This document shows positions 2,681 through 56,673 of a stretch of 64,000 nucleotides of DNA, one piece after another. Positions within the stretch are counted from its first letter, which is position 1. Each line of letters begins with the position of its first letter. This DNA is from Escherichia coli (GTDB taxonomy: Bacteria > Pseudomonadota > Gammaproteobacteria > Enterobacterales > Enterobacteriaceae). The notes under the pieces were generated by a model. It searched no databases and had not been told where the DNA came from. It saw only the letters and a list, made by a program, of their open reading frames with translations. The stretch lies in assembly GCF_048403405.1 (NCBI RefSeq), contig NZ_CP183129.1, one strand, 5' to 3'. A program made the position numbers and the translations under genes.

Positions 2681-5600
2681 ATGACAGTAAAAATTTCTGG
2701 CGTGCTTAAAGATGGCACAGGAAAACCAGTACAGAACTGCACCATTGTGCTGAAGGCCAGACGAACCAGCAGCACGGTGGTGGTGAACACGGTGGCCTCT
2801 GAAAATCCGGATGAAGCCGGACGTTACAGCATGGATGTTGAGCATGGCCAGTACAGCGTCACCCTGCTGGTTGAAGGTTTTCCGCCTTCACATGCCGGGA
2901 CCATTACCGTCTATGAAGGTTCCAGACCAGGTACGCTGAATGATTTTCTCGGTGCCATGACGGAGGATGATGTCCGACCGGAGGCACTGCGCCGCTTTGA
3001 GCAGATGGTGGAAGAGGTGTCACGTAACGCCTCCGCGGTTGCACAGAATACGGCAGCCGCGAAAAAATCAGCCAGCGATGCCAGTGCATCAGCCAGCGAG
3101 GCGGCAACTCATGCAACCGATGCTGCAGCCTCAGCACGTGCCGCCAGCACGTCAGCCGGACAGGCCGCGTCGTCGGCTCAGTCAGCGTCTTCCAGCGCAG
3201 GAACGGCATCGACAAAGGCCCGTGAAGCAGCAAAAAGTGCTGCTGCTGCAGAGTCATCAAAAAGCGCGGCAGCTACCAGCGCCAGTGCCGCGAAAACGTC
3301 AGAAACGAATGCCGCAGCATCACAAAAATCGGCAGCCACTTCTGCATCCACAGCGACCATGAAGGCGTCAGAAGCTGCCACCTCGGCACGGGGTGCGGCG
3401 GCCTCAAAAGAGGCAGCGAAATCTTCAGAAACGAATGCATCATCAAGTGCCAGTAGTGCAGCTTCCTCGGCAACGGCGGCAGGAAATTCCGCGAAGGCGG
3501 CAAAAACGTCCGAGACGAACGCTAAGTCTTCTGAAACAGCAGCGGGACAGAGCGCCTCAGCTGCGGCAGGTTCAAAAACAGCGGCTGCATTATCTGCCAG
3601 TGCCGCGTCAACAAGTGCCGGGCAGGCCTCAGCCAGTGCCACCGCCGCCGGAAAATCGGCAGAAAGCGCCGCATCATCCGCTTCAACAGCCACAACGAAG
3701 GCTGGCAAAGCCACTGAGCAAGCCACTGCAGCAGCGAGGTCTGCTTCTGCAGCAAAAACCTCTGAAACAAATGCAAAGACTTCAGCAGACAATGCTGCTT
3801 CCTCTAAGGCGGCAGCCGCATCGTCAGCCAGTTCAGCGGCGTCATCGGCATCATCTGCGTCTGCTTCAAAAGATGAGGCGACCAGACAAGCGTCAGCAGC
3901 GAAAGGTAGTGCCACGACAGCAACAACGAAAGCATCAGAGGCGGCAGGCAGTGCGACGGCTGCATCTCAGAGCAAAGTTGCTGCTGAATCCGCGGCAACG
4001 CGCGCCGAGACAGCAGCAAAACGGGCAGAGGATATTGCATCCGCCGTGGCGCTGGAGGATGCGAGCACGACGAAAAAGGGGATAGTACAGCTCAGCAGTG
4101 CAACAAACAGCACCAGTGAAAAGCTGGCGGCAACGCCAAAGGCAGTTAAAACTGTTAAAGATAGTTCAGTTCAAAAAACTGGCGACACAATGGGAGGGCA
4201 GTTAAAAATCAGCACGATAAATGCTCTTCGAATATTCAACCAAGCCTTTGGCCTTATTTTTAGGCGTTCCGAAGATCATCTTCATCTTATTCCGACTAAT
4301 GAAGGGGAGGGGGAAAATGGAGACATCGGTTCATTAAGACCATTCTCTATAAACTTAAGATCAGGGTTGGTGTCCATCGGTAATGGACTAAAAGTTGGTG
4401 GTAGTGTTACTGGTAATTTGACCGGAAACGCAGATACTGCGACCAAGATCAAGACAGCACGTAAGATTGGGGGCGTGGCATTTGATGGATCGGCAGATAT
4501 CAACTTGCCTGGAGTCAACGCTACCGGTAATCAAAACACTACAGGTAATGCTGCGACCGCCACGAAACTTCAGGCAGCCAGAACGATTAACGGTGTGTCA
4601 TTTGATGGTAGTGCAAATATCACATTGACCCCTTCAAATATTGGGGCATTGGCATTAACTGGAGGGACTCTTTCAGGTGGTTTAACTGCTGCTGGTGAGG
4701 TTATTTCAAGGTCAGCAAATGGTCTGCGTATTGCCTATGGCAACTATGGATTCTTTATCCGAAATGATGGATCAAACACATATTTTATGTTGACAGATTC
4801 GGGTAACAGTCTTGGTACGCACAATAGCTTAAGGCCGTTTATAATTAGTAACCATACTGGCAATGTTACAATTGCAACTAAATTAAACGCGAGTGGTGGT
4901 ATCACTGGATCTTTATCGGGTAATGCAAGCACAGCAACCAAATTGCAAACTGCAAGGACAATTAACGGCGTAAAATTTGACGGCTCGGCAAATATTGAAG
5001 CGTTTCCGCCAGGTGTTCCGCTGCCGTGGCCATCAGATACACCACCTGCAGGTTATGCGATCATGCAGGGGCAGACGTTTGATAAGGCAGCATATCCGAA
5101 ACTGGCTATTGCCTATCCTTCAGGTGTTATTCCAGATATGCGCGGCTGGACAATCAAGGGCAAACCCGCCAGTGGCCGGGCCGTATTGTCTCAGGAACAG
5201 GACGGCATAAAATCGCACACCCACAGCGCCAGCGCATCCAGTACGGATTTGGGGACGAAAACCACATCGTCGTTTGATTACGGCACTAAATCCACGAATA
5301 ACACCGGGGCGCATACGCACAGTCTGAGTGGCTCTACGGGGTCTGCCGGTGTTCATACTCATGGTAATGGTATTCGTTGGCCAGGAGGCGGCGGTTCTGC
5401 GTTAGCATTTTATGATGGCGGTGGGTTCACTTATGTCCAGAATTCACAGTATCAAGTAAGCCCGGAGACTTCTTCCTATAGATCGTATTATCAACGTATT
5501 CAGACACAGTCAGCAGGTGCTCATACCCACTCGCTGTCTGGTACTGCAGCAAGTTCTGGCGCACATGCACATACTGTAGGTATTGGTGCGCATACGCACT

Positions 5601-5707: not shown

Positions 5708-6291
5708 TGGCATTCAGAATGAGTGAACAAGCACGGACCATAAAAATTTATAATCTGCTGGCCGGAACTAATGAATTTATTGGTGAAGGTGACGCATATA
5801 TTCCGCCTCATACAGGTCTGCCAGCAAACAGTACCGATATTGCACCACCAGATATTCCTGCTGGCTTTGTGGCTGTTTTCAACAGTGATGAGGCATCGTG
5901 GCATCTCGTTGAAGACCATCGGGGGAAAACGGTTTATGACGTAGCGTCAGGGGACGAGTTATTTATTTCTGAACTCGGTCCGTTACCGGAAAATGTTACC
6001 TGGTTATCGCCGGAAGGGGAGTTTCAGAAGTGGAACGGCACAGCCTGGGTGAAGGATACGGAAGCAGAAAAACTGTTCCGGATCCGGGAGGCGGAAGAAA
6101 CAAAAAACAACCTGATGCAGGTAGCCAGTGAGCATATTGCGCCGCTTCAGGATGCTGCAGATCTGGAAATTGCAACGGAGGAAGAAACCTCATTGCTGGA
6201 AGCCTGGAAAAAGTATCGGGTGTTGCTGAACCGTGTTGATACATCAACTGCACCTGATATTGAGTGGCCTACGAACCCTGTCAGGGAGTAA
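5707..6291 (+). CDS. tfa: Tail fibre assembly protein
   Basis: 194 aa; [38 protein letters not shown] matches lambda Tfa as recalled. Confidence 0.9.
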
Positions 6292-38599: not shown

Positions 38600-38900
38600 A
38601 AAAACCGCCTCAGTTCTTTCACCAGAACGGGCGGTTTTTAACATTTAAGCTGATGACCACCGCGCTTTTTATTGACCATTTTGCACGCAAACTGGAAAAC
38701 CTGGCGTCGTCATCTATTCTTAAAGGGCAAGGCATCTAAGCCTGCATTAATGCCAACTTTTAGCGCACGGCTCTCTCCCAAGAGCCATTTCCCTGGACCG
38801 AATACAGGAATCGTGTTCGGTCTCTTTTTATCTGTTAAAAGCCAGAAGCATTCCCTTCGCTGACTTTATAGTCAACCATAACACACACTCTACTGTCTGA
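38600..38900 (-). ncRNA. ryeA: RyeA (SraC) antisense sRNA overlapping SdsR (boundaries approximate)
   Basis: K-12 yebY-pphA intergenic locus encodes this overlapping sRNA pair; strong bidirectional terminator at ~38605..38640. Confidence 0.4.
38727..38829 (+). ncRNA. sdsR: SdsR (RyeB) sigma-S-dependent sRNA
   Basis: Sequence gcaaggc..gcctgcattaatgccaacttttagcgcacggctctctcccaagagccatttccctggaccgaatacaggaatcg.gttcggtctcttttt matches the remembered SdsR sequence; ends in hairpin + T-run. Confidence 0.7.
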
Positions 38901-53672: not shown

Positions 53673-54341
53673 TCCTTCCTCAATCTTGAGTAACCCCGTC
53701 GTTGAAGGGTTACTCAATTCATCCTGATTATACGCACTGCCATGGTGCAACTGCTTCAAATTAAAACTCTGGTCTGACTTCAAATAATTATCATATTATT
53801 TATTTGCGTAACGGGATATCAGAAAAAGATATTTAGCCCATTAATTTATTAGGATGTTTACATCGGATTTGTGATTAAGTGTGGTATTATTTATTAGCGA
53901 AACGTTTCTCTCTTGATTTTTTTGCGCATTCATCAATTTTTCTTATTTTAAATTTACAATACCTTTGGCGATTGACTTCTCTTTGGGGTGATCGATAGCC
54001 GTTAACTGACTGTTTTATGAGAAAAAGTGATATAACTTTTTATTCATTGCATAGCAGAAAATGTGATATTGCACGCACTATGTAATAACTTCTCCCACTG
54101 GCCTGGAACAACTGAACTTATTGAACTATGTTAGAAAATACGTCAGTTTAAGTATCTGCCTGAACTGGCAAGGTTAAGCACAATGATATATCGGCGCGTA
54201 TTCCGTTGCATAAGTGTGCAAAAAAAGTGGAAGACGTATCGAGATTTGTGCGTCTGATCGAGACATGTTTAAAAATGGCTTGCCATAATTAACGTTGTAT
54301 GTGATAACAGATTTCGGGTTAAACGAGGTACAGTTCTGTTT

Positions 54342-54485
54342 ATGTGTGGCATTTTCAGTAAAGAAGTCCTGAGTAAACACGTTGACGTTGAATACCGCTT
54401 CTCTGCCGAGCCTTATATTGGTGCCTCATGCAGTAATGTGTCAGTTTTATCTATGTTATGCCTGCGGGCGAAGAAAACAATCTAA
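54342..54485 (+). CDS. yobF: Small protein YobF (upstream of cspC)
   Basis: 47 codons ([33 protein letters not shown]...); read manually, not in ORF track. Confidence 0.75.
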
Positions 54486-54497
54486 GGAATTTTTCAA

Positions 54498-54707
54498 ATG
54501 GCAAAGATTAAAGGTCAGGTTAAGTGGTTCAACGAGTCTAAAGGTTTTGGCTTCATTACTCCGGCTGATGGCAGCAAAGACGTGTTCGTACACTTCTCTG
54601 CTATCCAGGGTAATGGTTTCAAAACTCTGGCTGAAGGTCAGAACGTTGAGTTCGAAATTCAGGACGGTCAGAAAGGTCCGGCAGCTGTTAACGTAACAGC
54701 TATCTGA
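54498..54707 (+). CDS. cspC: Cold-shock-domain protein CspC
   Basis: 69 aa; RNP1-like KGFGFI and VFVHF. Confidence 0.95.
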
Positions 54708-54753
54708 TCGAATCCACTGATCTGAAGTGTGAATACGCTTCAATCTCGCTATA

Positions 54754-54780
54754 AAGCCTCGTCGAATGCGAGGCTTTTTA
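54754..54780 (+). terminator. Intrinsic terminator after cspC
   Basis: GCCTCG-N6-GCGAGGC followed by TTTTT. Confidence 0.65.
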
Positions 54781-54872
54781 CTTTGCTTTATCTTCGCTCC
54801 AGTCGTTCGGATATTTGCCCGCCGCGTGATTCGCGTTACACTTGCGGCCTTTAGTATCCTGCCGGAGTTGTC

Positions 54873-55682
54873 ATGTCGTTTTCCTGTCCACTTTGCCATC
54901 AGCCTCTTTCGCGTGAAAAAAACAGCTATATCTGTCCCCAGCGACATCAGTTTGATATGGCGAAAGAAGGGTATGTCAATCTGCTGCCCGTTCAGCATAA
55001 ACGGTCTCGTGATCCGGGCGACAGCGCGGAAATGATGCAAGCACGCCGCGCATTCTTAGATGCCGGACATTATCAGCCGCTGCGTGATGCAATTGTCGCC
55101 CAACTGCGGGAACGGCTTGATGAAAAGGCCACAGCGGTGCTGGATATTGGCTGTGGTGAAGGGTATTACACACACGCATTTGCCGATGCGCTGCCCGAAA
55201 TCACCACGTTTGGCCTGGATGTCTCGAAGGTAGCGATAAAAGCGGCGGCGAAACGCTATCCGCAGGTCACTTTTTGTGTTGCTTCCAGCCACCGTTTGCC
55301 GTTTTCCGATACCAGTATGGACGCCATAATACGTATTTACGCGCCGTGTAAAGCAGAAGAATTAGCGCGAGTAGTGAAGCCTGGCGGTTGGGTCATTACT
55401 GCCACGCCGGGACCGCGACATTTGATGGAGCTGAAGGGGCTGATTTACAATGAAGTACATCTTCATGCACCTCATGCAGAACAACTGGAAGGTTTTACAT
55501 TACAGCAGAGTGCTGAGTTGTGTTATCCGATGCGTCTTCGCAGTGACGAAGCCGTCGCATTATTGCAGATGACGCCGTTTGCCTGGCGTGCGAAGTCAGA
55601 AGTCTGGCAAACACTGGCAGCAAAAGAAGTGTTCGACTGCCAGACGGACTTTAATATTCACCTCTGGCAGCGTTCTTATTAA
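54873..55682 (+). CDS. rlmA: 23S rRNA m1G745 methyltransferase
   Basis: 269 aa; N-terminal Cys4 zinc motif (CPLC..CPQRH), SAM motif [10 protein letters not shown]. Confidence 0.9.
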
Positions 55683-56245
55683 CCGTGGAAGTGCGTCCAG
55701 AGGATCTGGACGCCGATGCCGATCAGCACCAGCCCGCCGAGAATTTCCGCTTTTTTCCCAATAATTGAGCCGATAAAGCGACCAACCATCATCCCTAATG
55801 TCGACATAATCAAGGTTGCACAACCAATGGCCAATGCGGTCGCGATAATGTTGACCTGCAGGAAAGCAAGACCAACACCCACAGCCATGGCATCCAGGCT
55901 GGTGGCAATCGCGGTGGTTACCAGTAGCCAGAAACCGTGTCGACGGCGCGGCTCTTCATCTTCATCATCTGCGCCACGAAAACCCTCAATAATCATTCGC
56001 CCGCCGAGGAATATCAGCAGCACAAACGCAATCCAGTGGTTCCATTCAAGGACAAACCGGCTGGCTAACATGCCCATTCCCCAGCCGATCAGCGGCGTCA
56101 GGGTTTCGACAGCACCAAAAATAAGGCCGGTTCGCAACGCTTCAGAAAATTTCGGTTTATGGAGGGTGGCACCTTTACCGATTGATGCAGCAAATGCATC
56201 CATCGACATACCAAACGCAAGAAGAACAGTAGCAGTGATATTCAT
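55679..56245 (-). CDS. mntP: Manganese efflux pump MntP
   Basis: 188 aa from [25 protein letters not shown] (track ORF extends to 56299). Confidence 0.9.
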
Positions 56246-56470
56246 GACAACGTCCTGACCGGGGTATCCATAAAACACATCATCGCCCCCAGCAAACATG
56301 CATACATGAACGACAAACCGCGATGGTTTTCGCGTTCATGCAGGCATAGCGATTGATGTGCATATGGTCTCGCCTGACTGAAAGTGTTCAGTCCGTACGT
56401 GCCACGTTTTGCAACGAGTATGTTGACACGTACATTTCCGGAATCTGGAAATCGGCTACTCCCCAAATGA
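56246..56470 (-). promoter_or_regulatory. Probable yybP-ykoY (Mn2+) riboswitch in the mntP leader (boundaries approximate)
   Basis: Long leader on the mntP strand containing GGGGAGUAG and ..CAUACUCGUUGCAAAACGUGGCACGUACGGACUGA..; the E. coli mntP leader is an established Mn riboswitch. Confidence 0.5.
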
Positions 56471-56673
56471 GGGCGCAACCTTAACATATTTTGAGAATAT
56501 AAAACAACTGTTGGAATATATTATTTCATTGCTTTATTGATAACGATTTTCATTTAGATTTATATATCAATAAAACGTTAAAATAAATAACAAATAAGGG
56601 AAGGGGTAATATAGCCTAAGCTATGTCTGATTATTAAAAATACACTAAACATAGCTTTGGCTAAATTGATAAC

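Follow-up and report, generated by a model that had tools for sequence, protein, structure and literature searches.

The mntP gene of Escherichia coli is preceded by a long leader, which raises the question of whether its mRNA starts with a manganese-sensing riboswitch of the yybP-ykoY family and, if so, how the state of the aptamer would reach the Shine-Dalgarno (SD) sequence. We analysed the leader in a 64-kb stretch of an E. coli chromosome (the window). The mRNA very probably (about 0.95) starts with a yybP-ykoY Mn2+ riboswitch that acts by the mechanism proposed below. The riboswitch is already known, being the well-studied E. coli mntP manganese riboswitch, and the variant in the window leaves every functional strand intact. 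The K-12 mntP (yebN) riboswitch is reportedly treated in Dambach 2015 and Price 2015 (PDB 4Y1M).

At this locus manY, manZ, yobD and mntP are encoded on the minus strand and rlmA and cspC on the plus strand, with the mntP AUG at 56245..56243 (Table 1). A preliminary description of the sequence had noticed a leader of about 220 nt on the mntP strand with the motif GGGGAGUAG; the leader is 225 nt long and the motif lies at 56464..56456. Placing +1 at 56470 makes the L1 adenosine A11 and the L3 adenosine A48, as numbered in PMC12153347, and because this numbering is reproduced the interval 56246..56470 is the exact published 225-nt 5' UTR; 56470 is thus probably the +1 of the mntP transcript. On folding, the whole leader is more stable than its shuffles (z = -4.2). 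The surrounding 601-nt stretch was found in 5422 of 5426 complete E. coli genomes, several strains being 100% identical. The matches to the leader region fall at 5425 places, one of them on a plasmid, with at least one genome carrying two places and four of the 5426 genomes carrying no match.

Three other readings of the region were discarded. Two promoter-like matches (56637..56608 and 56543..56515) do not fit a +1 at 56470, and their number is that of shuffled sequences (2 versus 2.3). An 81-aa frame across the leader (56242..56487) is a mechanical artefact whose start lies upstream of the transcription start site, and a 206-aa, N-terminally extended mntP frame from an AUG at 56299 (minus strand) is likewise an artefact and is not conserved in other enterics. 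This AUG is in frame, 18 codons upstream of the annotated mntP start and inside the anti-SD segment; it is missing from most other enteric leaders and is probably not used.

Table 1. Positions of mntP and of the parts of its leader in the window (nt, leader numbering from +1)
Feature	Position	Strand	Basis or remark
mntP coding sequence, 188 aa, regulated gene	55679..56245	minus	Pfam PF02659, 187.4 bits; RefSeq annotation mntP
Complete mntP 5' leader, nt +1 to +225, aptamer and expression platform	56246..56470	minus	+1 from the A11/A48 numbering of PMC12153347
yybP-ykoY Mn2+ aptamer, nt 1-110, four-way junction	56361..56470	minus	model R1, RF00080, covariation
P1.1 5' strand CAUUUGG, nt 2-8, half of the switch helix	56463..56469	minus	pairs with 56367..56361
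L1 motif GGGGAGUAG, nt 7-15, with conserved A11	56456..56464	minus	exact match; roles in PMC12153347
P2 hairpin AUUUCC / GGAAAU, nt 19-37	56434..56452	minus	all 6 pairs changed on both sides
Left leg: P3.1 (nt 38-44 with 70-76), L3, P3.2 hairpin (nt 55-66)	56395..56433	minus	covariation
L3 UCAACAUACU, nt 45-54, with A48	within left leg 56395..56433	minus	
P4 hairpin GACUGAA-CACU-UUCAGUC, nt 78-95	56376..56393	minus	loop base 56386: C here, U in K-12
P1.2 3' GGC, L1 3' GAGA, P1.1 3' CCAUAUG, nt 97-110	56361..56374	minus	AGAC[CT] block in relatives
HA5 CACAUCAAUCGC, nt 111-122, 5' strand of helix HA, contiguous with the P1.1 3' strand	56349..56360	minus	pairs with 56286..56275
Variable insert hairpin in the HA loop, nt 130-167	56304..56341	minus	3/5 of the K-12 differences
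U-rich anti-SD and G-rich motif AUGUUUGCUGGGG, nt 172-184	56287..56299	minus	complementary to 56264..56250
HA3 GCGAUGAUGUGU and S2' UUUAUGG, nt 185-203	56268..56286	minus	pairs with HA5, predicted to be able to invade P1.1
C-rich block CCCCGG (nt 207-212), SD AGGA (nt 215-218), mntP AUG (nt 226-228)	56243..56264	minus	

The conserved L1 and L3 loops are both present. GGGGAGUAG, the 5' strand of L1 with its extruded adenosine, occurs once in the 64-kb window (0.10 expected from shuffles), and the composite pattern GGGGAGTAG-N20-40-GTCAACATAC also occurs once in the window and in none of 100 shuffles. The conserved-looking block that the preliminary description had placed further downstream proved to be the L3 loop, GUCAACAUAC at 56427..56418, which has the right spacing from L1 and agrees with the upper-case positions of the RF00080 consensus. 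The strand that closes the junction, the L1/P1.1 3' strand (GAGACC and, after it, a sequence complementary to the 5' end), is GGCGAGACCAUAUG at 56374..56361. The aptamer takes up 110 nt of the leader and leaves 115 nt for the expression platform.

The search with the Rfam yybP-ykoY model that had been proposed as a check gave a divided result. At gathering scores, Rfam 15 reported five RNAs in the whole 64-kb window and no Manganese riboswitch; with permissive filters on 56150..56650, RF00080 (Manganese) gave a minus-strand match at 56376..56472 whose score, 41.9 bits (E = 5e-10), falls short of the cut-off of 45. The same gathering score applied to 18 related loci as a control also rejects the K-12 leader, though this has been crystallised and is Mn-responsive, as well as the leaders of E. 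albertii, of two Enterobacter (L026 and L045) and of one alphaproteobacterium. Other enteric mntP leaders pass at only 45.8-52.4 bits, and distant relatives at 50-83. In the RF00080 alignment, the Rfam 15 consensus lacks the P1.1 3' strand and has a long P4 insert and a longer P2; E. coli scores low because the deletions relative to this P4 insert and longer P2 cost score and because the consensus is without the P1.1 3' strand. Since the validated K-12 leader fails the same cut-off, the shortfall is one of model sensitivity for this clade and not counter-evidence. The preliminary description had held that the absence of a match to the model would speak against the riboswitch, a rule that at the default setting would wrongly reject the mntP riboswitch. 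We found no riboswitch annotation over the mntP leader in the RefSeq E. coli records inspected, which PGAP leaves without it because the Rfam model and its cut-off miss the aptamer. The RF00080 cut-off is thus too strict for this clade, so that Rfam 15 misses an experimentally validated aptamer, and an automated 'no hit' for the yybP-ykoY family in Enterobacteriaceae should not be taken as absence.

Other Rfam matches at gathering score in the window are IS009 (6050-6248, plus strand, 225 bits), the Hfq-binding sRNA STnc490 (20813-20936, minus strand, 146 bits) and the overlapping antisense pair SraC/RyeA and SdsR/RyeB (38689-38833, both strands). A match to the cspA thermoregulator model (54322-54782, plus strand, 139.7 bits) covers cspC together with its leader; the gene at the cspC position is named cspE by PGAP in strain TUM14771 and cspC in K-12.

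Relatives of the aptamer were collected from one genome per species with the pattern GGGGAGTAGC-N15-45-GTCAACATAC, which selects on L1 and L3 only; this gave at least 120 loci, drawn from Proteobacteria, Firmicutes, Cyanobacteria and other groups. The AGAC[CT] 3' strand, which lies outside the selection pattern, is present in 117 of 117 non-truncated relatives among the matches listed. The window sequence was aligned with 111 relatives using MAFFT (alignment A2, 112 aptamers), and GGGGAGUAG falls on invariant columns of these relatives. Without an input structure, RNAalifold recovered P1.1, P1.2, part of P2, P3.1 and P3.2 from this alignment, and 14 of the 22 pairs show compensatory changes. 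When the four-way junction was imposed on the 112 aptamers, with the structure taken from the E. coli row and the sequences chosen on L1 and L3, 83.3% of the cells were paired, compared with 62.1% after column shuffling (0/500) and 30-43% when the pairing partners were slid by 1-3 columns. Changes on both sides of a pair were found in 877 cells and at 27 of the 32 pairs, with every helix represented, and the covariation score of the junction was 0.575 versus 0.05-0.18 for the slid versions. The P1.1 columns are 77% paired, with five of the seven pairs changed on both sides, and P3.1 and P3.2 are 92% and 97.5% paired with abundant compensatory changes. The values for P4 (67%) and P2 (74%) are underestimates, as MAFFT aligned P4 and the outer part of P2, both variable in length, poorly.

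A covariance model that includes the closing P1.1 (R1, alignment A3) was built from 90 aptamers, none of them from Enterobacterales; no non-canonical P1.1 pair was flagged in its alignment. On the 64-kb window it gave one match only, the full-length match at the mntP leader (56358..56472, minus strand, 85.3 bits, E = 3.6e-21), without non-canonical pairs. In 43 of the 120 matches listed, the aptamer is directly followed by an MntP homologue encoded on its own strand. For the 77 others with exact L1 and L3 (among L003-L122), no MntP homologue was found within 1.5 kb downstream; the genes there are presumably transporters of the TerC/Alx type, P-type ATPases or UPF0016 proteins. Every structural hallmark of the yybP-ykoY family that we looked for was found in the leader sequence, and the operational Rfam cut-off alone was missed. 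The assignment of the mntP leader to this Mn2+ riboswitch family in the preliminary description was therefore borne out by the covariation, by the clade-blind model, by near-identity with K-12 and by the adjoining MntP, and we regard the identity and fold of the aptamer as established by sequence comparison and covariation.

In K-12 MG1655, mntP has the same locus (yobD-mntP-rlmA) and the same 225-nt leader, and the aptamer there differs by one base in the P4 loop. Five of the 225 leader positions differ: 56386 in the P4 loop, 56321, 56317 and 56312 in the insert hairpin, and 56251 between the SD and the AUG. None lies in L1, L3 or any aptamer helix, and both HA strands, the anti-SD, the C-rich block, the SD and the AUG are also shared exactly. 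The substitutions make the insert hairpin 4.4 kcal/mol more stable here (-17.9 versus -13.5 kcal/mol in K-12). Of 5422 E. coli genomes, 4601 carry the aptamer at 99% identity or more but only 470 the platform, which marks the aptamer as the constrained part of the leader by sequence and the window as a carrier of a minority platform allele of the riboswitch studied in K-12. Because L1, L3 and every aptamer helix are identical, the K-12 experiments apply here, and the allele in the window would be expected to behave like that of K-12.

The expression platform was compared with the leaders of 16 other Enterobacterales, and helices were counted on 18 enteric leaders (alignment A4). All share one order of elements: the P1.1 3' strand, HA5, a variable insert, the U-rich anti-SD with the G-rich motif, HA3 with the UAUGG that invades P1.1, the C-rich block and the SD. 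In the 18 leaders, helix HA is 91.1% paired with seven pairs changed on both sides, and the helix between the anti-SD and the SD is 91.4% paired with four such pairs (in Providencia, Mixta and Arsenophonus), compared with 39-47% in slid controls. By their positions in the sequence, the two helices cross and are hence either pseudoknotted or mutually exclusive. The insert ranges from about 7 nt to about 60 nt across enterics, E. coli having the hairpin-containing form of about 60 nt; in Enterobacter, Lelliottia, Providencia and others the hairpin is absent or replaced (about 7-12 nt), a distribution that suggests that this lineage-specific hairpin is dispensable for switching. In E. coli this hairpin is the first of the platform to fold, and PMC12153347 probably refers to it with the 'single helix' formed at about 175 nt. 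A terminator-like hairpin (CGCGAAAACCAUCGCG followed by GUUUGUCGUU, 56334..56319) was considered and rejected, as it is part of the insert hairpin, its U-tract is poor and the published mechanism is Rho-dependent.

The K-12 mntP aptamer has been described as a four-way junction of two coaxial legs that holds Mn2+ between L1 and L3 and has P1.1 as its switch helix, with 4Y1M as its apo crystal structure (PMC12153347). Mn activates a K-12 translational fusion, and the activation is lost when the leader is transcribed by T7 RNAP, pointing to kinetic control; without Mn, L1 and P1.1 are disrupted or strand-invaded at a transcript length of about 205 nt (PMC12153347). Rho-dependent termination takes place in the leader and early ORF, where most transcripts end even with Mn, and Mn relieves it in part; bicyclomycin raised mntP expression 20-28-fold, Mn gave 9-16-fold induction from the constitutive T7A1 promoter, and deletion of nt 1-19 abolished the Mn response while the Rho effect was kept (PMC11647493). 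In later papers (PMC11647493 among them), the OFF state has the RBS and SD sequestered in a stem-loop; in vitro, a 2025 probing study detected no change at the RBS in response to Mn.

Combining these data with the leader in the window, we propose that nt 1-110 would fold into the coaxial legs P1.1-P1.2-P2 and P3.1-P3.2-P4. At raised cytoplasmic Mn2+, an ion would be bound between L1 (GGGGAGUAG/GAGA) and L3 (UCAACAUACU), so that the legs dock and the weak P1.1 is held shut. Without Mn2+, the platform strand nt 185-203 would pair just 3' of the aptamer and then invade the P1.1 3' strand; with P1.1 invaded, the right leg would open, the SD would be masked and translation would be off. Because the leader is then untranslated, most transcripts would be cut short by Rho, in the leader or early in the ORF. 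With Mn2+, P1.1 would resist invasion, the SD would be exposed and mntP translated, and coupled ribosomes may partly shield the transcript from Rho. This control would come on top of transcriptional activation by MntR. The calculated energetics agree with such a default-OFF switch: P1.1 alone has -3.5 kcal/mol, HA -14.0 and HA extended over the P1.1 3' strand -20.7, and in the unconstrained ensembles of all 18 enteric leaders P(P1.1) is 0.00, P1.1 being disfavoured by 5-14 kcal/mol. Since P1.1 is disfavoured thermodynamically, it should survive only if held by Mn-driven docking.

It may be asked whether the leader senses a ligand at all. It could instead be a long, structured, untranslated attenuator that loads Rho, with the whole Mn response exerted by MntR at the promoter; the efficient Rho termination in the leader, which ends most transcripts even with Mn (PMC11647493), and the MntR-like operators upstream of mntP would fit. 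Such a leader would hardly have L1 and L3 conserved to the nucleotide and a four-way junction that covaries across phyla, and it is contradicted by the 9-16-fold Mn induction of reporters driven by constitutive T7A1 and by the loss of the response on deletion of nt 1-19 (PMC11647493), so we give it almost no credence. Given a riboswitch, the strand that masks the SD has two candidates, which we hold at roughly equal and individually modest odds. One is the right leg of the aptamer itself (nt 1-37: P1.1 5', L1, P1.2 and P2), freed without Mn2+ as has been proposed for alx, whose RBS is described as pairing with the disrupted P1.1/L1 (PMC12153347). The full-length MFE structure pairs nt 7-33 with nt 209-247, including UCC (nt 22-24) with the GGA of the SD and CCGG (nt 30-33) with the C-rich block, and HA extended without Mn leaves 3 nt before the C-rich block and should sterically exclude an internal anti-SD helix. 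Against the right leg, its duplex with the RBS is no better in energy than shuffles (mean z = -0.7), and in Providencia the P1.1 5' strand makes a poor duplex with the RBS region (-5.9 kcal/mol), whereas the internal helix there carries compensatory changes. That internal helix is the other candidate: the anti-SD/G-rich strand nt 174-184 would mask the SD by pairing with nt 207-219 unless Mn2+ binding prevents it. The 91.4% pairing with four pairs changed on both sides (slid 39-47%) speaks for it, as does the finding that in every species the RBS region forms its best duplex with the anti-SD strand, and an RBS-sequestering stem-loop is the accepted model of later papers (including PMC11647493). 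Its 5' strand, however, lies inside the HA loop, and HA has -14.0 to -20.7 kcal/mol versus -14.4 for the internal helix before any loop penalty; HA should be longest without Mn, so that the sign of the regulation would be reversed; G.U pairs predominate at the SD; and outside Providencia and Arsenophonus the duplex z-scores are weak. The duplex energies of both candidates were indistinguishable from those of shuffles (mean z -0.7 and -1.2), a cross-species duplex matrix did not discriminate between them, and folds of the 18 leaders constrained to P1.1 or left free showed no consistent ON/OFF difference in SD exposure.

The conservation of both crossing helices could also be accommodated by a switch in tether length, built as a pseudoknot in Enterobacterales, a reading we consider doubtful. 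Here HA (nt 104-122 with 185-203, the outer part competing with P1.1) would cross the helix of nt 174-184 with 207-219. With P1.1 locked by Mn2+, the 7-nt invading strand would stay single-stranded and provide a linker of 10-11 nt for loop-to-tail pairing; without Mn2+ it would be absorbed into HA, which leaves a linker of 3 nt, and another partner would take over the C-rich block and SD, the G-rich CUGGGG mimicking the P1.1 5' strand UUGGGG. If true, this would account for the lack of a simple Mn-dependent opening of the RBS in vitro. Far less probable is control by an upstream ORF, in which the AUG at nt 200, within the strand that invades P1.1, is exposed only when Mn2+ locks P1.1. Its ribosomes would melt the RBS structure and either start again at the mntP AUG, which overlaps the stop (AUGA), or in other species continue directly into mntP. 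The E. coli frame from nt 200 does have nine codons (MDTPVRTLS; 56271-56242, minus strand) with a UGA that overlaps the mntP AUG, and in the 18 enteric leaders the frame is the overlapping one in ten (without a stop in L068), the mntP frame in seven and the third frame in one. This bias (17/18 versus 12 expected) comes, however, from few independent lineages; no SD precedes the AUG at nt 200, which is forced by complementarity to the CCAUA of P1.1 and needs no coding explanation, and no such ORF is annotated in K-12 or mentioned in the mntP papers examined. For the riboswitch as proposed, the two conserved crossing helices and the variable insert offer concrete targets for mutagenesis of the step from P1.1 to the RBS.

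Upstream of the leader, two 19-nt arms (56608-56626 and 56649-56667), 89% complementary to each other and each with a palindrome of the type ATAGC-N4-GCTAT (AATATAGCCTAAGCTATGT and ACATAGCTTTGGCTAAATT), lie about 140-200 nt upstream of the mntP +1; they look like the MntR operators that activate mntP. An AT-rich inverted repeat with 22-nt arms (56521-56542 and 56565-56586) contains TTGATAACGATTTTCATT, which resembles a Fur box. Fur has also been reported to regulate mntP.

Several members of the family have been described elsewhere. The Xanthomonas oryzae yebN/mntP aptamer (PDB 6N2V) is a four-way junction upstream of an MntP homologue, as here, and the Xanthomonas relative in our alignment (L035) passes Rfam at 51.7 bits; its platform is unrelated in sequence, the HA/anti-SD layout having been compared within Enterobacterales. 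The second E. coli system, alx (PRE/SraF), resembles mntP in family, ligand, translational control and the use of P1.1 as switch helix (PMC12153347). It differs in having no P2 and thus a three-way junction, another L3, an intrinsic terminator in the platform and a response to alkaline pH through Mn, whereas mntP has a four-way junction and no pH response. The alx riboswitch is absent from the 64-kb window, where model R1 has its single match at mntP. In B. subtilis yybP and ykoY and in L. lactis yoaB, the aptamer architecture is the same and P1.1 stabilised by Mn2+ keeps its 3' strand from an OFF helix. That competing helix is an intrinsic terminator in the B. subtilis and L. lactis members, whereas in E. 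coli mntP the competing HA is non-terminating and would be coupled to masking of the SD and to Rho-dependent termination.
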